From Clostridia bacterium (lineage in GTDB: Bacteria; Bacillota; Clostridia; Oscillospirales; CAG-272): a stretch of DNA of 57,031 nt. A program made the position numbers and the translations under genes. The stretch is from the NCBI GenBank assembly GCA_017415485.1, contig JAFQGP010000016.1, forward strand, positions 1 to 57,031, written 5' to 3'. Under the pieces are notes generated by a model. That model worked only from the letters and a program-made list of their open reading frames with translations. It had not been told where the DNA came from and did no database searches. Below are positions 8,431 through 16,916 of this stretch, in pieces. Positions within the stretch are counted from its first letter, which is position 1. Each line of letters starts with the position of its first letter.

Positions 8431-9065
8431 AGTGCCTCCAGAAGCGCCTCGTATCTTGTGAGAAGGAAATCGTATCCTTCATCAGAGAAATGGCGGTTAG
8501 ATTTGCCCTCAAGCACACAGCCCTCGTCGATCCACTCGCACTGCGCGGGATTGTAGAAGGAGAAGCCCGCCTGACGGTAGTTGTCGAAGCAAACGAGTCC
8601 CCAACGGGCACAGACCGCAAGCATTGCGTCAACGTAGTCGATGTCGGAAAGGCCTTCCTTGTTCTTCGAGCGCCAACGGTCATAGTTGGTCAGGAAGAGA
8701 AATTTCGCCTTCGGATATTTCGCGGTCAGACCGAGAATGAGGGCGTTGAGCCCGCCGCAGAAGGTCGAGGTGTCCTCGGAATCGATCTCGCCGAGCGGAA
8801 CGTGCAGGCGCTTGTCATTCGCGCCGCCGAGAACAACGACGTAATCCGCGCCGTCCTCCATATCCGCATAGCGGACGCACATGGGAACGCGCTGGGGTTC
8901 TGTGGTCTGATGCGCGACGGGGTTGCCGTTGATGCCGTGATTATATACTGTCATATTGTGCTTTTTTGCCAGCTTGTTGACCCAAGTCGCCTCGTTTCCG
9001 AGCTTCGAGCCGTAAATAAGCGAGTCGCCAAGCGCGACGATCGTCTTGCCTGTAAGATTGGACAT
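8427..9065 (-). CDS. SGNH/GDSL hydrolase
   Basis: ALGDSL, HGING, LGGAND and a C-terminal His (RHFSDEG). Confidence 0.88.
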   Translation of the reverse strand: MSNLTGKTIVALGDSLIYGSKLGNEATWVNKLAKKHNMTVYNHGINGNPVAHQTTEPQRVPMCVRYADMEDGADYVVVLGGANDKRLHVPLGEIDSEDTSTFCGGLNALILGLTAKYPKAKFLFLTNYDRWRSKNKEGLSDIDYVDAMLAVCARWGLVCFDNYRQAGFSFYNPAQCEWIDEGCVLEGKSNRHFSDEGYDFLLTRYEALLEAL

Positions 9066-9103
9066 AATTAATTTCCTCCAAGATTGTATAATACTACATA
9101 ATA

Positions 9104-9132
9104 ATTATATCACCAACCAAGCCGTTTGTCAA
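9104..9132 (-). promoter_or_regulatory. Sigma-A promoter for the SGNH-tlpA operon
   Basis: Minus-strand TTGACA (9127-9132), 17 bp, TATAAT (9104-9109). Confidence 0.7.
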
Positions 9133-9235
9133 TGATAAATCTGTTCTGTTTTCTTCCATTTATATTATATACCATTTTCTGCAGATTTTCCGTGACGCAG
9201 TCACAAAAAACTCCTTCTGCAGGGCAAAAGGAGTT

Positions 9236-9955
9236 TTAAATCTTTTTCAGATAATCAAGATAGGCAATTTTCAGATCGGGCATCGTTCTGCGGGGGATGG
9301 AAAGGACAGCACCGTTCTCCATCACTACCCTGTCGGCAAGAAGCTTGTCGATGCGGTCGAAATTGATGATATAGGTCTTTCCGCAGGGATAAAAATGACC
9401 GAATGGCACAAGCTTTTCGCAAAGCTCGGAAAAGGACACTCGAACGCGCATCGATTCGCCGTTTTGCATACAGACGTGCTGATAGTGGTTGTCGGACTCG
9501 CTGTAAACAATTTTATCCGCCGACACCTTGCAGTATCCGTTTGATATCTTCAAAAGGACAATTTTCGGGTGTTCCGCGCCAAGCGAACGCAGAGCTTTAT
9601 CGACCGCCTCGAAAAAGTCCTTTTGGGCATAAGGCTTCAGCAGATAATGGGTCGCATTGACGCCGAATGCCTGGAAGGCAAGGTCGGGGGAGGAGGAGGC
9701 AAGGATGATGGGGCTTTCGGTATTTTTCTCGCGAAGCTGTGCCGCAAGGTTCATTCCCGTGATGCCGGGCATGTGGATGTCAAAAAAGAAGATGTCATAA
9801 TCCGCGCCTTGCTCTGTTTTGTCAAGGAAATCAGAGGGACTTGAAAAGCTTTCCACCAGGAAACGAACGCCACGTTCGGCTTGGTATGCCGAAATGAGCG
9901 CGAGGGCTGAATCGAGATATTCTTTTTCGTCATCCAAAATCGCAATTCTTCGCAA
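9236..9955 (-). CDS. LytTR-family response regulator (REC + LytTR), no adjacent kinase
   Basis: IAILDDE, phosphoacceptor DIFFFDIHMP, YLLKP and LytTR-like IVYSES...FYPCGKTYIINF. The start is probably the TTG at 9955 after GAAGGTG; the ATG at 9973 is an alternative. Confidence 0.88.
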   Translation of the reverse strand: MRRIAILDDEKEYLDSALALISAYQAERGVRFLVESFSSPSDFLDKTEQGADYDIFFFDIHMPGITGMNLAAQLREKNTESPIILASSSPDLAFQAFGVNATHYLLKPYAQKDFFEAVDKALRSLGAEHPKIVLLKISNGYCKVSADKIVYSESDNHYQHVCMQNGESMRVRVSFSELCEKLVPFGHFYPCGKTYIINFDRIDKLLADRVVMENGAVLSIPRRTMPDLKIAYLDYLKKI

Positions 9956-10028
9956 CGCCGCACCTTCTTTCATAAAAAAATAAAGCGCCTCCGTGACAGC
10001 CAAAGTCACAGAAAGGAACGCTTGCTTG

Positions 10029-10052
10029 CGTAAAAGAGTTACTTTTACGAAA
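10029..10052. promoter_or_regulatory. Left recombination site (IRL) of a putative invertible segment
   Basis: cgtaaaa-gagttac-ttttacgaaa has dyad arms around a 7-bp asymmetric spacer. Its reverse complement matches 11106-11129 at 23/24. Confidence 0.85.
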
Positions 10053-10995
10053 GTCTGACAAATTCCGAGAACCTTTCCATTTCCTTCTTTTTGGCTTCCA
10101 TTGATGGATGAACGTACAAGTCAAGGGTGATCTTGACGCTTGAATGTCCGAGTATTTCGCTTAAAGACTTGGGATCAAACCCAAGCTCGATCGCGCGGCT
10201 TGCGAAGGTGTGACGTAAGGTGTGGAAATGATACTGCGGGATTTCGCATTCCGTGTAATAGCGCTTTATAATATTCTGATAAGTCCTCGGCTGAGTAAAA
10301 ACGGGCGTTCCCGTTGTAACGTAGCACTCGGGCGAGGCGGCGTGTTGCTGCAATATAACGTTCAAAAAACTCGGTATGGGCACTTCTCTGTCCGAGTATT
10401 CGCTTTTCGGCGTTCCCGTGAGCATATAAGTGCTTCCGTTGCCGTTGCTGACCCGCTGTATGGTTCGTGCGATCCTGATGGTTTGCCTTTTTAAATCAAC
10501 ATCGCCCCACTTAAGACCGCATATCTCGCCCAAGCGCAGACCCGAATACAGGCAGATCAAAACACCCAATTTGTTCAGATCGAGATCGGAAAGTAAATAA
10601 TCGGTAAGCGTTTTTTGCTCCGAAACCGAAAAGACCTGCGGGCGGACAGCTTTAAACGGCTTTGTTTTGGGCGACATTTTCATAATTTTTGGAATATAAC
10701 CGCAATCATACGCATATTTTAACACTTGGTTGATCGTTAAAATATGAAGCTTTGCCGTGCGAAGCTCATATCTTTGCAAGATCTCCTCGCCGAGCTCTGC
10801 CAACAAGTCTTCATTAATATATAAAAGCGGCTTATCTCTCCAAGCATCGCTTCTTGCAATGCTTTGTATTATGCTCCGATACTGCGCTGCGGTCGATTCC
10901 TTTGTTTCAGTCGATTTGATCTTCAGCCAACCCTCCGCAGCCTCTTCAAATGTCGCGGATCCCTCAAAATGACGGTCAAATTCATTTTTCATCAA
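10045..10995 (-). CDS. Tyrosine recombinase (putative invertase)
   Basis: Complete catalytic set: GLRLGE (R), TPKS (K), HTLRH (H-x-x-R), LGHS (H) and LDLYVH (Y). The stop codon lies inside the left inverted repeat. Confidence 0.93.
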   Translation of the reverse strand: MMKNEFDRHFEGSATFEEAAEGWLKIKSTETKESTAAQYRSIIQSIARSDAWRDKPLLYINEDLLAELGEEILQRYELRTAKLHILTINQVLKYAYDCGYIPKIMKMSPKTKPFKAVRPQVFSVSEQKTLTDYLLSDLDLNKLGVLICLYSGLRLGEICGLKWGDVDLKRQTIRIARTIQRVSNGNGSTYMLTGTPKSEYSDREVPIPSFLNVILQQHAASPECYVTTGTPVFTQPRTYQNIIKRYYTECEIPQYHFHTLRHTFASRAIELGFDPKSLSEILGHSSVKITLDLYVHPSMEAKKKEMERFSEFVRLS

Positions 10996-11054
10996 TATTT
11001 CCTCATTTTTTATTCAAAAATGCGCCAAGAGCTTGAAATGTTTACAAAATGTTA

Positions 11055-11083
11055 TTGATTTTTTATCTTGGCGTATATATAAT
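11055..11083 (+). promoter_or_regulatory. Outward-facing sigma-A promoter inside the invertible segment
   Basis: TTGATT (11055-11060), 17 bp, TATAAT (11078-11083). An overlapping minus-strand extended -10 TGCTATAAT (11082-11090) faces the recombinase gene. Confidence 0.7.
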
Positions 11084-11105
11084 TATAGCAGACATTTATT
11101 AACAT

Positions 11106-11129
11106 TTTCGTAAAAGTAACTCTTTTATG
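11106..11129. promoter_or_regulatory. Right recombination site (IRR) of a putative invertible segment
   Basis: tttcgtaaaa-gtaactc-ttttatg. The spacer gtaactc is the reverse complement of the IRL spacer, and 11106-11127 is a perfect 22-bp inverted copy of 10031-10052. Confidence 0.85.
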
Positions 11130-11170
11130 AAAATTTGACATTATTATTATGCCATACGGGGGTGGGGATC

Positions 11171-12169
11171 ATGACGGATAGGTTGAAAAAGATCAATTTT
11201 CTGATCGTGATTCTTTGCATTTTGCTGGCAATCAGCCTGGCGGCGCTGGCTTTTGTTCATTTTTGGGGCGAAAATGCATCGGGCGTTGCTCCCGATAACT
11301 ACATTTTGCCGCAAACGGAGCGTTCGTCGGGGCATTTGCCATCGGGGCTTTATGCTTCACCGCTCAGAACAGTCATTTCATCCTCGCGCGCGAAGGAAAC
11401 TGTGCTCTCGATATACAAAAACCACGCCGAGGACAGCACGCCTTTCAACTCCCCGAATCTTTTCCCCGGCGACAGCGAGTCGAAAAAGTATCTCGTTGAG
11501 GTCTCGCACAGGGGAACTGTCACTGTCCGCTTCCGCGCCGATATACGCGCGGGCTATGATAAACTTGCTGAGGTGCTTATGTGCCGCGTTGAGGTTGCGG
11601 GCGAGGGCGCGCTTTATGACGGACTTATGCGCGATATGCCCGAAAGCCTGAATTGCCGCATCTCTTCGGTGTTCAAAAAAACGACCGATCTTGTCTATAC
11701 CGTCACCGTCTATCTCGAAACGAGTGTCGGAAATGAATATATGGACCGCGAGCTCGTTGCGGATTTCCGCTGGTGGGTCGAGGAAAGCGGAGGAAGCAAT
11801 CCTCCCGTGACCACAGAAAAGCCCGACACGACCAGACCTATCGTGACCGATGAGCCCGACACGACCGAGAAACCCATTGTAACCGACGAACCCACCGTCA
11901 CAGACGAAACTACCGATGAACCCATCGTGACCGATGAACCTACCGATACCGATGAACCCATCGTCACGGCAGAACCGACAGTGACGGAGGAGATCACAAC
12001 CGAGGAAACGACCGCGGATCCCGAGGACACGGGTGAGCTTGTCAGCCCCCCGACGGGCGACAGCTTCCATTCGCTGCTTTGGCTGCTGCTTTTGCTTGCC
12101 GTGATCGTGATCGGCAGAATGCTCTCAAAGAGCGCGCGCCGCGAGTACGGCGAGGAGGGCGAGCGATGA
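11171..12169 (+). CDS. Surface protein with a TasA/camelysin-like domain, Pro/Thr linker and sortase-type C-terminal sorting signal
   Basis: N-terminal hydrophobic segment, NLFPGDS motif resembling the TasA-like PG motif, VTDEP repeats, then SPPTGD, a hydrophobic helix and a basic tail. Confidence 0.7.
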   Translation: MTDRLKKINFLIVILCILLAISLAALAFVHFWGENASGVAPDNYILPQTERSSGHLPSGLYASPLRTVISSSRAKETVLSIYKNHAEDSTPFNSPNLFPGDSESKKYLVEVSHRGTVTVRFRADIRAGYDKLAEVLMCRVEVAGEGALYDGLMRDMPESLNCRISSVFKKTTDLVYTVTVYLETSVGNEYMDRELVADFRWWVEESGGSNPPVTTEKPDTTRPIVTDEPDTTEKPIVTDEPTVTDETTDEPIVTDEPTDTDEPIVTAEPTVTEEITTEETTADPEDTGELVSPPTGDSFHSLLWLLLLLAVIVIGRMLSKSARREYGEEGER

Positions 12170-12708
12170 AAAGAAACACGTCAAAACGCCTCGCTTTCGG
12201 AATTTTTGCGGTGATCCTGCTTTCCGCGGCACTTTGCATAACGACCTATGCTCTGTTTTATGCCACGGTCACGGTCGAGGGCAATTATTTCAAAACGGGA
12301 ATCATAAACATCGATCTCAACGGCGGCGAGCCGGTGATCGAGGAAAGCGAATATCTGTTTGAGCCCGGAATGACGGTCGAAAAGGACTTTTACATACAAA
12401 ACAAGAGCACCTGGGCGGTCTATTACCGGATCTACCTTGACAATGTCGAGGGCGGGCTTGCGGATATACTTGAAATAACCGTTTTTGACGGGGATAACAT
12501 CCTTTATCAAGGCAAGGCATCGGATATGACAAGGCAAAACGCGGGCGCGGCTGATGATATACTTCTGATCGGCGAGCGGCGCGAGCTGAAGATCAGATTC
12601 CACTATCCCAAGGGAAGCACCAATCTCTCGCAGAATTGGGAGCTCAAATTTGACCTCTGCGCCGACGCGGTGCAGGAAAAGAACAACCCCGACAAGGAAT
12701 TCGATTAA
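12166..12708 (+). CDS. Small TasA-like protein with SipW-dependent signal peptide
   Basis: ATG at 12166 overlaps the upstream stop. Sequence shows ...CITTYALF...NYFKTG, LFEPGMTVEKDFYIQN and a terminal ADAVQ. Confidence 0.8.
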   Translation: MKRNTSKRLAFGIFAVILLSAALCITTYALFYATVTVEGNYFKTGIINIDLNGGEPVIEESEYLFEPGMTVEKDFYIQNKSTWAVYYRIYLDNVEGGLADILEITVFDGDNILYQGKASDMTRQNAGAADDILLIGERRELKIRFHYPKGSTNLSQNWELKFDLCADAVQEKNNPDKEFD

Positions 12709-12711
12709 AAA

Positions 12712-13413
12712 ATGAAAAAGGCATTAAATATCATATCCACGGTGCTTGTGTGGTTGCTTGTTGTTGCAACGGTGGGGATAATGATCTTCACTTTCATTTC
12801 CGTCAACACCTTTGACCAGGCGAACAGAAGCATTTTCGGATACAAATTCTTCATCGTCCGATCCGACTCTATGAGCGCAACGGATTTTGACGCGGGCGAC
12901 ATTGTTTTTGTCAAGAACTGTGACCCCTCCACCCTGCAGGCGGGCGATATAATCGCATATACCTCGCAAAACCCGAACAATTTCGGCGACACGGTGACGC
13001 ACAAGATCAGGGAAAGGGTGACGAATGAATACGGCGAGCCCGCGTTCATCACCTACGGTACAACGACAGACACAAACGACGAGACCCCGGTCACGTACCC
13101 CTACGTTCTCGGCAAATATTCGGGCAGGATACCGAAGGTGGGCTCGTTTTTTCAGTTTCTTAAAACGACACCCGGCTATATTCTTTGCATTTTTGTTCCT
13201 TTTCTGCTTCTTATACTTTATCAAGGCTGGAACTGCATCAAAATCTTCCGCAAATACAGGGAGGAGCAGCTTGCCGCCCTCCGCGCGGAGCGCGAGCAGC
13301 TTGAGGAAGAACGCAGACAGTCCGCGGAAATGATGCGCGAGCTTCAGGCACTCAAGGAACAGCTCACGGGCAAGAGCAACGCTGAGCCCGAGAATAAAGA
13401 TATTGACAGCTAA
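12712..13413 (+). CDS. sipW: Signal peptidase I, SipW (S26B/ER-type) family
   Basis: IVRSDSM (catalytic Ser), GDIVF, GDIIAY, VTHKI (His general base) and a C-terminal TM helix; flanked by SipW-type substrates. Confidence 0.9.
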   Translation: MKKALNIISTVLVWLLVVATVGIMIFTFISVNTFDQANRSIFGYKFFIVRSDSMSATDFDAGDIVFVKNCDPSTLQAGDIIAYTSQNPNNFGDTVTHKIRERVTNEYGEPAFITYGTTTDTNDETPVTYPYVLGKYSGRIPKVGSFFQFLKTTPGYILCIFVPFLLLILYQGWNCIKIFRKYREEQLAALRAEREQLEEERRQSAEMMRELQALKEQLTGKSNAEPENKDIDS

Positions 13414-13467: not shown

Positions 13468-15078
13468 ATGACGAATAAGACAACAAAGAGAGCATTGCTT
13501 GCAAGTATAGTCTCCCTCGTACTTTGCTTCTCAATGCTTCTCGGCACCACTTATGCGTGGTTTACTGATAGCGCAAGCTCGGTAAACAATGTTATCAAAT
13601 CCGGTAATCTTGACGTAGTTCTTGAAGTCGGAACACTCAACGCAGGCGGCGCTTCCGCTAACCCCAACGATTGGACTTGGACTGCACTTGATTTGAGCCA
13701 GCCCATCATCGAGCTTGAAGATGTTGAACCCGGTTACGTAGCAACCAAGGCGATCCGTATCCGCAACAATGGCTCGCTCGCTTTCAAGTATCAGCTTTCT
13801 ACAGCGATAGTTTCGGAAACTACCGTTGCTAATATCGAAGGCGGCACCTTCAAGCTTTCTGATTATCTCTATACTTTCACTTCCCAGAGCCTTTCTTTCA
13901 CCGATTGGGATAGAGAAAAGATCCTTGAAATTATCGATATTTCACTTGCCGGAAACTTTAACGACGGCTTTGGTGCAGGCACTTCCAACACCTCTGTAAA
14001 CAGATTCGGTGACATCGTTGCCACAGATTTGGTTCTTAAAGAAGGCGAATCTCAGGCATTTGCTTTTGCTGTAGCAATGCCCACTTGGGTCGATAACAAG
14101 GCAAACCATGCCGGTGTTGCGCCTCAGCTCACTTTCGGTATCAACGTTCTTGCAACTCAGTTTACTTACGAGAAGGATAGCTTCGACGATCAGTATGATA
14201 AAGAAGCTTATTATTCCGGTGCTTTGAACAAAGACGGTAATGTTTATTCTCTCACTGGCGACGCAACGATTGCTGATGAATCCTTCTTTGCTGACTATAA
14301 CGCTACTGATGCTTATACAGTAAATGGTAACGGTCATACTGTTACAGGTGTTGCAACTTATGTTCCAGGATGGGGAAGTATTGGAAACATGCCCGAAAAT
14401 GGCATAGTATTCGCTTCTTCAAATGGTGCAAAAACAACCGTTAATGACATTACATTTACAGGAAATTCTCAGATGATTATGAGTGGTTATTACAATCCCT
14501 CAACTGGTAGCACCAACTACAATTCCGAATTTAACAATGTAAAAGTTGTTGATATCAAAGCAACCGGTTCTGTGAATAATGAGTATTTTGCTATGAGCAT
14601 TTATGGTAATGCAACAATGAACAATTGTACGGTAAAAAATACCACCGTTTCTGCTCTTTGTGATGATCATGCCACAGCAGAGGTATATGATATCGCCATT
14701 GTAAATGGAGCAAAACTGATTGCTAATAACAGCACTTTCGGAAGTCTTTATACTGGAAAGCATACAAGTAGCAACTTTTGGGGCAAGGCTTATGTTGAGC
14801 TGAACAATTCTTCCGCTGATGTTATCTATGCTTGCGGTAGAACTAACGGAGGAGCAACAGTAATCAACAGTGGATCTTATGTTACAAAGATCGTTGCAAA
14901 CAACAACTCAGGTATTAACCTTACAATTGCTGAAGGTGCAGTAGTTGATACTCTCGATCTGACTGCAATCACCGGTGCTGCATCAAAGAGCACATTCAAT
15001 ATTCAGGGTACTGTCAATACAATAGTTGATGGAACTAATGTGTATACTACCATCGACGAGTGGATAGCTGCGCAATAA
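13468..15078 (+). CDS. TasA/camelysin-family protein with SipW-dependent signal peptide and an additional C-terminal beta-rich domain
   Basis: AGGAGG RBS; KRALLASIVSLVLCFSMLLGTTYAWFTD...NNVIKSGNLDV, EPG...IRNNGSLAFKY, and VLATQFTYEKDSFDDQYD closing the conserved domain. Confidence 0.88.
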   Translation: MTNKTTKRALLASIVSLVLCFSMLLGTTYAWFTDSASSVNNVIKSGNLDVVLEVGTLNAGGASANPNDWTWTALDLSQPIIELEDVEPGYVATKAIRIRNNGSLAFKYQLSTAIVSETTVANIEGGTFKLSDYLYTFTSQSLSFTDWDREKILEIIDISLAGNFNDGFGAGTSNTSVNRFGDIVATDLVLKEGESQAFAFAVAMPTWVDNKANHAGVAPQLTFGINVLATQFTYEKDSFDDQYDKEAYYSGALNKDGNVYSLTGDATIADESFFADYNATDAYTVNGNGHTVTGVATYVPGWGSIGNMPENGIVFASSNGAKTTVNDITFTGNSQMIMSGYYNPSTGSTNYNSEFNNVKVVDIKATGSVNNEYFAMSIYGNATMNNCTVKNTTVSALCDDHATAEVYDIAIVNGAKLIANNSTFGSLYTGKHTSSNFWGKAYVELNNSSADVIYACGRTNGGATVINSGSYVTKIVANNNSGINLTIAEGAVVDTLDLTAITGAASKSTFNIQGTVNTIVDGTNVYTTIDEWIAAQ

Positions 15079-15238: not shown

Positions 15239-16768
15239 TTGAATACCGAAAGGCTTACGGAAAAAGCGTTTTGCAGAAAAATGACTTTATTCTTCTTGAC
15301 CATTCTTGCCTGCGCCGCCATGATGGCTTCGTCGGCTTACGCTTTGTTCTTTAAGCATATTTCTGCGCAAAATTCAACCCTCGTCGGTGCTTATTATACC
15401 GTGGAGGTCACAAACACCGCAAATAACACCCTCGTCGCTCCTCTTGCTTATGAGGATATGCACGTTTTCACAATAACCTCCCGCGGCACCGCCTCGAAGG
15501 GCTATTGCAAGATCGGGGTGAATGACAACACCTATTACACCGTGGAGATCCCGAAGGATCAGTCCATCACCATCACCATCAAAGCCGCGCGCGACAGCGT
15601 CATCACTTTCACCCCCCAATGGGGCGCGCAAACAGAGATCATCGCATCTATGGCATATAAAGACGGCGACACCGTTATCGATTCGGTAACTCCGCACGCC
15701 ACCTATACCGTCGAGCCCGCCGCAAGGCTTTCCGCCATCGCGGAATACTACGGCGTTCCCGAGGCGGATATCATCATCTACAACAATCTCGTTGCCACCG
15801 CGGACGAATCGGGAAACACCTCGGTTTCCCTGCAGACGGAAAACGGTCTGAAGATCCCCGGCGCGGAGGCAAGCAAAAAGGAAGCATACAAGGTTCCCTT
15901 CTCCACTTACACCGTCGAGCCCACGGCAAAGCTCGAGGACGTCGCGCGCTATTATGAGGTCCCCGTCGCCGATATCCTCGCCTTCAACAAGCCCGAAGAT
16001 CTTTTGGTGCGCCAAACGCTCAAGATCCCCTATGCCGCGCAGAGGGCTGTCCCCTATGCCGTTCCTTTTGCGACCTACAAGGTCGAGGCGACAGCGAAGC
16101 TTAAGAATATTTCGGATCATTACAAAATTTCCGAGGCGGATATCCTTGCCTACAACAACATCACCGCGATCAAGGTCGGTGAGCTGCTGAAGATCCCCGG
16201 CGTCAGCCCGGATACAAAGGCATATGCCGTGCCCTTCAGGGAATATCGCATAGAGCCCACGGCAAGGATCGGTGACATCTCCATCTATTACGGCGTTTCG
16301 GTCGAGGATATCTTCATTTACAACAACATCACAAACGGCATGATCATCGCGGGCACCGTTCTGAAAATTCCAAGCCCCAAGGAAGTGCCGATAGATTATA
16401 AGGTTCCGCATACCATCTACACCGTCGAGCCCACCGCCAAGATCGAGGATATCGCGAAGCATTACGGCGTCACGCCCGATATGATCAAGCGTTTCAACTA
16501 CATTGAGGCAATTGCGACGGGAATGCAGTTAAAGATCCCCTATCCCGTGACAAGCGAGCTTTATAAGATACCGTTCGCCGCCTACACCGTCCCCGAAGGA
16601 GCAACGCTTGAAAATATCGCCAAGCATTACAATATCGCGCCCGCGGATATTCAGGCATTCAATCCGAACATAGAGATCAAAGCGGGCGCAGCCATCCGCA
16701 TCCCCGGCGTTGCCCCCGACTCCCCGCCCTACATCCCCCCGGCAAAGACCGAGGAGAAGAAGCAGTAA
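15239..16768 (+). CDS. Secreted protein with SipW-type signal peptide and six LysM-like repeats
   Basis: TTG start after AAAGGAGG; ...ASSAYALF...N signal; six YTVEPTAKLEDIAxxYGV...IxxxN...LKIP units. Confidence 0.85.
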   Translation: MNTERLTEKAFCRKMTLFFLTILACAAMMASSAYALFFKHISAQNSTLVGAYYTVEVTNTANNTLVAPLAYEDMHVFTITSRGTASKGYCKIGVNDNTYYTVEIPKDQSITITIKAARDSVITFTPQWGAQTEIIASMAYKDGDTVIDSVTPHATYTVEPAARLSAIAEYYGVPEADIIIYNNLVATADESGNTSVSLQTENGLKIPGAEASKKEAYKVPFSTYTVEPTAKLEDVARYYEVPVADILAFNKPEDLLVRQTLKIPYAAQRAVPYAVPFATYKVEATAKLKNISDHYKISEADILAYNNITAIKVGELLKIPGVSPDTKAYAVPFREYRIEPTARIGDISIYYGVSVEDIFIYNNITNGMIIAGTVLKIPSPKEVPIDYKVPHTIYTVEPTAKIEDIAKHYGVTPDMIKRFNYIEAIATGMQLKIPYPVTSELYKIPFAAYTVPEGATLENIAKHYNIAPADIQAFNPNIEIKAGAAIRIPGVAPDSPPYIPPAKTEEKKQ

Positions 16769-16776
16769 AATATCAA

Positions 16777-16808
16777 GGGACTGAGCCACAGATCAAGGCT
16801 CAGTCCCG
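16777..16808 (+). terminator. Intrinsic terminator of the SipW operon
   Basis: gggactgagcc...ggctcagtccc followed by attattttt. Confidence 0.7.
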
Positions 16809-16916
16809 ATTATTTTTCAGAAATATTCCAAACCCTCTTTACAAACGCGCGAAAATTTGGTATCATATATAGTGGATAAAAATAATCCTTAATCTATAAA
16901 AAGCGAGGAAAAAACT

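Follow-up and report, generated by a model that had tools for sequence, protein, structure and literature searches.

An invertible DNA segment carrying its own tyrosine recombinase gene beside a SipW/TasA-like fibre operon in an uncultured gut Clostridium

A stretch of 57,031 nucleotides from an uncultured Clostridia bacterium (contig JAFQGP010000016.1 of assembly GCA_017415485.1), referred to here as the window, was found to contain an invertible segment bordered by inverted repeats, lying between an orphan LytTR response regulator gene on its left and a five-gene operon encoding SipW- and TasA-like proteins on its right. The inverted repeat, a tyrosine recombinase gene inside the segment and the natural occurrence of both orientations were directly established. 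Our preferred interpretation, to which we assign a probability of roughly three in four, is that the locus is an autonomous promoter inverton that switches the TasA-like fibre operon by DNA inversion, with the LytTR regulator as a possible second target. That the promoter is active, and which of the two states is ON, we infer from the anatomy of the locus and from comparison with related cassettes.

A repeat search of the window identified two arms of 27 nt, the left (IR-L) and right (IR-R) recombination sites, that are complementary at 25 of 27 positions (93%) and have a perfect core of 22 nt (10031–10052 and 11106–11127). In controls at the same locus the longest inverted repeat was 11 nt across 20 shuffles of one flank and 9 nt when the flank was reversed but not complemented. 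With up to three mismatches allowed, the site occurs exactly twice in the whole draft genome (2.69 Mb in 154 contigs, 87% complete), both matches bracketing the segment. Each site is made up of dyad arms, TT(G/T)CGTAAAA and TTTTA(C/T)GAAA, around an asymmetric centre of 7 nt, and this layout is that of a simple tyrosine-recombinase core site. Sites of tyrosine recombinases placed in inverted orientation are established to give inversion and not excision, and as the two centres are oppositely oriented, inversion is the expected outcome. The perfect 22-bp repeat and the site geometry had both been described in the initial annotation of this stretch and were confirmed. The same annotation had proposed an arm extension, GAAAnTnTGACA, shared by the sites; two copies were found against 0.25 expected, yet this is probably chance. 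It was rejected as a site feature because the pattern had been picked post hoc, one of the copies is coding sequence for the C-terminus of the recombinase, and the extension is not conserved in the related cassette of another species of the genus (G022).

Public sequence data contained the stretch as assembled contigs in 20 runs from 12 studies, and four of these runs were aligned over positions 8500–12700. In run X1, perhaps the source sample, one contig covers 9783–11193 in the orientation of the window. A single 3140-nt contig of run X3 (study P2) consists of 8521–10030 (+), 10031–11127 (−) and 11128–11662 (+), which is an exact flip at the repeat with one base difference within the segment, and both flipped junctions were also present in run X12 from sheep gut (study P6; records 8 and 9). 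The contigs of run X5 (study P3) break at the repeats, and both junction types are found in this one sample: two long contigs (depth 9.5–10.4) have 8-nt end overhangs that are the reverse complements of 10023–10030 and 10053–10060, i.e., flipped junctions, and a 38-nt contig (depth 3) covers the unflipped left junction (10023–10060). The joints of the inversion are at 10030/10031 and 11127/11128 and are ambiguous over exactly the 22 perfect bases. The segment inverts at the repeat in nature, as observed in contigs of three independent studies, and both forms occur, at least once within the same sample (X5). The flipped junction sequences predicted in the initial annotation were matched in these contigs and its proposal of inversion was borne out. 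The flipped form predominates in three of the four aligned runs, although four samples say little on the prevailing state.

The segment holds one real open reading frame (ORF), the recombinase gene on the minus strand, together with about 110 nt containing an outward promoter candidate, P_out. The content reported for it previously, namely a recombinase with all catalytic residues and a TTGATT-17-TATAAT match pointing outward across the right site, was found to be correct. The recombinase matched Phage_integrase of Pfam (PF00589) with 82.6 bits (cut-off 27.1; E 3.6e-23), and residues R154, K197, H258, R261, H284 and Y294 are all located in the expected motifs. Its best solved relative is the catalytic domain of Tn1549 Int (2.2e-15), and five catalytic motifs have identical letters in the alignment of the two enzymes. 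Models of narrower families were not reached: scores were 32.3 and 18.4 bits against the FimB/FimE-type invertase models NF007370 and NF007371 (cut-offs 221 and 222), 83, 58, 53 and 52 bits against those of XerC, XerD, XerA and XerS (cut-offs 220–335), and below cut-off against the integron-integrase model. The gene is under purifying selection, being 42% identical to its G022 homologue at third codon positions compared with 75–84% at positions 1 and 2. Its stop codon (10045–10047) falls within the inner arm of IR-L, as had been pointed out earlier and as is also the case for the G022 homologue, and because of this position the gene is intact in both orientations. The segment is in this respect self-contained, and the recombinase presumably catalyses the inversion of its own segment. 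The gene and its cassette are present in a single copy in the genome of the window. The same genome carries two adjacent tyrosine recombinase genes at G000:C93:5366-7017 (L002, L003), which share 29% and 37% identity with the enzyme of the cassette, and further matches on contigs C5 and C102; these are candidates for a trans-acting enzyme or for a mobile element.

Comparison with other genomes indicated that the cassette has relatives. In the genome and metagenome contig collections the only close relative of the recombinase was that of G022 (69% identity), all other matches being 22–54% identical. The G022 cassette is located in an unrelated neighbourhood, between an operon encoding VWA, PP2C and 1740-aa proteins and a small ORF, and its repeat is of the same kind as that of the window, except that the centre in both arms reads GTGTTAC. 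The two loci are 81–89% identical across the repeats, 71% across the non-coding part inside them and 67% across the gene, compared with 36–40% outside the repeats. Homology is bounded by the repeats, by which the cassette appears to be a unit. The inner non-coding part is under constraint, since its identity of 71% compares with 42% at third codon positions of the gene.

Of 401 genomes sampled from the order, 53, including that of the window, contain distant homologues of the recombinase (31–44% identity), and 6467 of 7997 candidates scored in a large protein collection were homologous at E<=1e-30. A survey of homologous recombinases for flanking inverted repeats, as had been suggested with the initial annotation, found a perfect flanking repeat of 15–34 nt at 34 of 49 homologous loci, the longest in shuffled controls being 14 nt. 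Many of the family sites take the form TTTCGCAGAGT, followed by 5–7 nt and then ACTCTGCGAAA. The 15 loci with no flanking repeat of at least 15 nt comprise those cut by contig ends (L010, L063, L079, L086), metagenome homologues (L017–L020), loci whose alignment begins only near residue 80 (L041, L042, L093), and L064, L073, L074 and L075, the last with 14 nt; they may represent ordinary integrases or imperfect repeats that are invisible to an exact-match search. Both orientations, likewise anticipated, were encountered among the homologous loci, with two pairs in opposite assembled states relative to a shared flank (L061 and L063; the paralogues L085 and L095). Several genomes carry 2–4 copies of the family, with four in G269. 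Copies within a genome have different repeats and mostly show no blastn match or align weakly (best 68% over 916 nt), with the exception of one pair that is 96% identical. Genes found beside the distant cassettes include those for a PA14 protein (1531 aa), collagen-repeat/cohesin/dockerin proteins, a SpaA-type pilin with a signal peptidase, and a Peptidase_M73-like gene. By crude longest-ORF calls, which permit only a rough description, the flank gene on the promoter side faces outward in 14 cases and inward in 12, with no bias.

Many homologues were located close to a contig end, at a distance of no more than a few hundred bases (e.g., G432:C2:147-1040, G120:C8:5-892 and G225:C79:66-782), which would fit assembly breaks at cassettes present in two orientations, short contigs being common in the collection anyway. 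For 25 of the best 120 homologous proteins the longest contig measured 1.1–1.6 kb; this was discounted as evidence for the same reason.

For the 34 cassettes with repeats, sigma-70-like promoter matches were scored in the interval that separates the start of the recombinase gene from the repeat on its 5′ side. The best outward match reached p<=0.1 against shuffles in 28 of the 34, compared with five on the inward strand, and in 32 of the 34 the outward −10 ends no more than 72 nt from the repeat; several are perfect TTGACA-17-TATAAT. An outward promoter beside the repeat is thereby supported as a putative family-wide feature, in keeping with what had been proposed for the window, and P_out fits this pattern. 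In the window orientation P_out points across IR-R at the operon, its −10 ending 22 nt inside that site, and its score was matched by about 2% of shuffles (p ~0.02). The palindrome TATAATTATA (11078–11087) provides a consensus −10 hexamer on both strands and is common to P_out and to TGCTATAAT, a candidate extended −10 for the recombinase gene. As both −10 hexamers are placed at the same position by TATAATTATA, P_out and the candidate recombinase promoter would compete for one binding region of RNA polymerase. The block TGCTATAATTATA surrounding TATAATTATA is identical in G022.

The distance from IR-R to the start codon of operon gene 1 is about 38 nt, and the promoter scan found no promoter-like site between IR-R and this ATG at 11171. 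Since the operon has no promoter of its own in this interval and P_out points at it, the window orientation would be the fibre-ON state, and the cassette probably controls the fibre operon. The interpretation of the locus as an invertible switch, made in the initial annotation, is upheld as regards exact inversion, self-containment, the outward promoter candidate and an operon lacking its own promoter; its ON/OFF reading is well supported by anatomy and the family comparison. The features of the locus are listed in Table 1.

Table 1. Sites, genes and predicted signals of the invertible segment and its flanks (window coordinates)
Feature	Position	Strand	Description
Orphan response regulator	9236–9973	−	245 aa; receiver and LytTR DNA-binding domains; oriented away from the segment
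Terminator-like hairpin between IR-L and the regulator ATG	9983–10023	−	15-bp interrupted stem; −18.3 kcal/mol, z −1.5
IR-L (left recombination site)	10026–10052		Two dyad arms of ~10 nt around 7-nt centre GAGTTAC
Invertible segment	10031–11127		1097 bp; both orientations in public gut metagenome contigs
Tyrosine recombinase gene	10045–10992	−	315 aa; ATG at 10992; Pfam PF00589 match
P_out (outward promoter candidate)	11055–11083	+	TTGATT-17-TATAAT; 10/12 consensus matches
Candidate extended −10 for the recombinase gene	11082–11090	−	TGCTATAAT; read from sequence, inferred
IR-R (right recombination site)	11106–11132		Centre GTAACTC, reverse complement of the IR-L centre
Operon gene 1	11171–12169	+	332 aa; N-terminal membrane helix, Thr/Pro/Glu/Asp-rich linker, C-terminal SPPTG
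Operon gene 2	12166–12708	+	180 aa; small TasA/camelysin-like secreted protein, SipW-type signal peptide; start set by alignment
Operon gene 3	12712–13413	+	SipW-type (archaeal/ER-type) signal peptidase I; TIGR02228 69.6 bits (cut-off 51.85)
Operon gene 4	13468–15078	+	536 aa; SipW-dependent-type signal peptide, N-terminal TasA/camelysin-like domain
Operon gene 5	15239–16768	+	Several LysM (peptidoglycan-binding) repeats; Pfam LysM 8.9e-26, 3 stretches
Intrinsic terminator closing the five-gene operon	16777–16815	+	11-bp GC-rich stem and U run; −25.5 kcal/mol, z −8.2

The product of operon gene 1 had no match in Pfam or NCBIfam and is 38% identical to that of the gene in the same position in a sister species (G031). 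At its C-terminus SPPTGD precedes a hydrophobic stretch and a basic tail, and the G031 homologue has PPYTGE in the same layout; we take this end to resemble the (S/P)PxTG sortase sorting signal of Clostridia, and by analogy with TapA the protein may be the wall anchor of the fibre. Operon gene 2 scored 21.4 bits against Peptidase_M73, just below the cut-off of 22.5, and was also below cut-off for TIGR04090 and TIGR04088. The best folds for its predicted model (pLDDT 64) were FimA pilins and the TasA fibre 8aur_A (E 3e-5 to 7e-4, TM 0.34–0.45; for 8aur_A E 4.6e-5 and TM 0.45), lending weak support to a donor-strand type of fibre subunit. The signal peptidase encoded by operon gene 3 did not reach the equivalog model of Bacillus SipW, NF046067 (79.7 against a cut-off of 190; E 2e-22). 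Operon gene 4 passes the cut-offs of both Peptidase_M73 (36.4 against 22.5 bits) and TIGR04088 (20.8 against 19). Neither gene 2 nor gene 4 had a sequence match to any solved structure. Orthologues of SipW were present in seven of 37 other genomes of the genus (55–64% identity), in operons that lack the cassette, and no ancestral site of an "empty" arrangement was reconstructable from these 37 genomes.

The orthologous operon of G031 (a gene 1 homologue, a TasA-like gene and SipW) is preceded by inverted repeats of 21 nt that are 90% complementary and separated by 122 nt (L053, G031:C60, 6072–6092 and 6215–6235). A serine recombinase gene adjoins these repeats (L053 6255–6884, minus strand; Pfam Resolvase 8.8e-30). 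Among the loci of this serine recombinase or its 60–75% homologues, a repeat pair was found just downstream at three of six, and one was cut by a contig end. The G031 locus resembles a small promoter inverton, of a type unrelated to the cassette, that lies before the same fibre operon.

On the preferred interpretation, the recombinase would be made at a low level from its own weak promoter and would bind the dyad arms of both sites, and strand exchange within the 7-nt asymmetric centres would flip the cassette. In the window orientation P_out would read across IR-R into the operon and yield the anchor-like protein, the small TasA-like subunit, the SipW signal peptidase, the large TasA-like protein and the LysM protein, i.e., fibre ON. 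In the flipped orientation the operon would lie behind the 950-nt recombinase gene and receive read-through only, giving an OFF or low state, and P_out would point at the promoter-less LytTR regulator through a possibly attenuating hairpin. Regulator transcripts would be short and strong after the flip, as opposed to weak and long in the window orientation.

A second output through the regulator is plausible. The domains of the regulator were recognized by Pfam as Response_reg (2.6e-14) and LytTR (2.3e-09); a scan of the 18 longest ORFs up to ~10 kb to either side of the segment revealed no Pfam domain of a histidine kinase, and no close orthologue of the regulator was found in the 37 other genomes of the genus (E<=1e-50). 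No minus-strand promoter-like site was found by the promoter scan between 10060 and 9974. The gap between IR-L and the regulator ATG is too short for the gene to have its own promoter, so that transcripts of the regulator must exit the cassette and cross the hairpin, and a coupling of the regulator to the cassette is favored. Directly after the hairpin there is a U7 run, UAUUUUUUU (9982–9974), which abuts the regulator ATG, and the 3′ half of the hairpin contains GGAGG, the only one upstream of this ATG. As the hairpin is terminator-like and holds this sole GGAGG, it may blunt or gate the output of the regulator, or insulate it, and could act as a terminator, an attenuator or an RBS trap. Expression of the LytTR regulator according to orientation is a possibility to which we give slightly less than an even chance.

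A competing view is of a switch with one ON/OFF output, the fibre operon, in which the hairpin and U-run terminate the recombinase transcript and insulate the regulator in both states. The position of the interrupted stem immediately before UAUUUUUUU would suit such a terminator, and among the 26 cassettes with two readable flanks, outward-facing genes were found on both sides in only eight and on one side in 17 (by the same crude ORF calls). Against this, the hairpin is unexceptional when compared with shuffles, and with the U-run abutting the ATG and no promoter-like site after IR-L every transcript of the regulator crosses the hairpin; we consider a single output unlikely.

It could also be argued that the polarity is reversed, the operon being transcribed mainly when flipped by read-through from the recombinase promoter at TGCTATAAT, with P_out not acting as the operon promoter. 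G022 has an identical extended −10 on the strand of the recombinase, no terminator is present from the recombinase stop codon to the operon in the flipped state, and the flipped form was the main one in three of the four runs. However, the predominance of outward over inward promoter matches across the 34 cassettes, several of them with perfect consensus, speaks against this, as does the weakness of recombinase promoters in known switches, and reversed polarity appears improbable.

Equally improbable is that the two orientations are a fixed strain polymorphism, a rare evolutionary inversion marking lineages rather than active phase variation. One orientation is dominant per sample in three of the four runs, and X3 and X5, both mainly flipped, have many single-nucleotide differences in common. 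Nevertheless X5 contains both junction types, X12 is also flipped yet is without most of the substitutions that X3 and X5 carry at 9027–9100, the recombinase is intact and under purifying selection, and both states are seen in other members of the family too.

The intergenic region from a GDSL hydrolase gene to the regulator (9027–9148) is a hot spot of strain differences. Here X3 and X5 have in common 18 substitutions and two single-base deletions (9027–9100), and one contig of X12 has deletions of 5, 7 and 1 nt (9134–9148). A perfect TTGACA-17-TATAAT with an upstream TG lies inside this hot spot on the minus strand (9132–9104).

That the cassette is a mobile element, whether an insertion sequence-like unit or a small transposon of the tyrosine-recombinase kind bounded by terminal inverted repeats, is highly improbable, for although the neighbourhoods in G000 (the genome of the window) and G022 are unrelated, several genomes hold 2–4 family copies including the 96% pair and many homologues lie at contig ends, the same locus was found in all four runs with orientation alone differing, no contig joins the flanks without the cassette, there are one copy and two sites in the genome with no target-site duplication seen at the ends, the within-genome copies other than that pair have diverged and have different repeats, and sites in inverted orientation lead to inversion and not excision.

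A number of points weigh against an autonomous switch of the fibre operon. Contigs give no orientation ratios and lose rare variants, the evidence on orientation covers four of the 20 runs containing the stretch, and the mixture in X5 could be due to two strains instead of switching within one clone. At least four other tyrosine recombinase matches are found in the genome, and one of these enzymes could act in trans. All of the promoters are predictions from consensus matches, and the equivalent promoter of G022 has a poor −35, its best outward match being 62 nt from the repeat (p ~0.085). The hairpin with its U7 run before the regulator may stop transcripts from P_out. In the flipped state no terminator separates the recombinase gene from the operon and OFF may be leaky; as the recombinase gene then reads straight into the operon, "OFF" may mean "low".

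A broader reading, which joins three propositions and which we regard as doubtful when taken together, would be as follows. The cassette would belong to a large undescribed family of portable tyrosine-invertase promoter switches of gut Clostridia, each of 1.1–1.6 kb with its own recombinase, strong outward promoter and own sites, and repeatedly placed before operons for surface structures (TasA-like fibres, pilins, PA14/collagen/cohesin-type proteins). It would be a true two-output toggle, with the fibre in one state and the orphan LytTR regulator and a second programme acting in trans in the other. Phase-variable control of the fibre would have been acquired at least twice, the second instance being the serine-invertase inverton of G031.

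Invertons are a main source of reversible heterogeneity in gut bacteria, and most described cases are from Bacteroidota and Proteobacteria. The locus described here is an inverton backed by data in an uncultured gut Clostridium and would tie phase variation to a fibre of the SipW/TasA type. If the coupling to the LytTR regulator is true, a single flip of DNA would decide the state of a surface structure and of a regulon together. Cassettes present in two orientations would explain why such loci break metagenome assemblies. Compact tyrosine invertases that possibly do not cross-react, with several different cassettes per genome, would also be useful parts for genetic memory.

The tapA-sipW-tasA operon of Bacillus is regulated by SinR, and we know of no control of SipW/TasA-type fibre operons to date other than by transcription factors. 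Like that of Bacillus and related fibre operons (PMC9674648, PMC10151520), the operon of the window brings together a signal peptidase of the SipW type, TasA/camelysin-like subunits and a possible anchor. In the literature no paper was found that connects invertons, invertible DNA or phase variation with sipW, TasA or camelysin, although the PhaseFinder and PhaVa surveys and supplementary tables may list such loci without describing them. Nor was a description of this cassette family found, and those surveys and S2 Table of PMC5903667 (inversion sites of Clostridia) may hold similar loci.

The locus is a real inverton whose layout is that of Hin, with a tyrosine recombinase in place of the serine enzyme; its chemistry corresponds to that of FimB/FimE or RecV. 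The Hin/hix switch of Salmonella resembles the window in having a segment of ~1 kb with short inverted sites, and, inside it, a recombinase gene and an outward promoter that in one of the orientations drives a flanking operon for a surface structure. The serine recombinase Hin has a 2-bp crossover and depends on an enhancer and on Fis, whereas the tyrosine recombinase of the window has sites whose dyad arms flank an asymmetric centre of 7 nt. The fimS element of Escherichia coli is similar to the window in another way, with the tyrosine recombinases FimB and FimE inverting the promoter of a fibre operon, that of the type 1 fimbria. The genes for FimB and FimE lie outside the element, and the recombinase of the window is not of their family, being below the cut-off of NF007370. 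In PMC5903667, Hin is cited as an example of a recombinase inside an invertible segment, fimS is given as ~300 bp with 9-bp repeats, and a putative fimbrial switch of Providencia stuartii is described that measures 844 bp and encloses a recombinase ORF. The latter belongs to a Proteobacterium and a chaperone-usher fimbria, and the section on it describes neither a survey of a family, nor an analysis of promoters, nor a second output at its flanks. As Hin and the P. stuartii switch already have the recombinase inside, the architecture of the cassette is not unprecedented.

The RecV switches of Clostridioides difficile (cwpV, flgB and cmrRST) are like the window in that a tyrosine recombinase carries out promoter-proximal inversion for surface proteins, according to PMC5903667. 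One of these, cmrRST, is reported in 10.1101/690230 as a signal-transduction system, including response regulators, under an invertible switch. RecV is encoded elsewhere in the genome and serves several small switches, whereas cassettes of the type found in the window each carry their own enzyme and their own site sequence.

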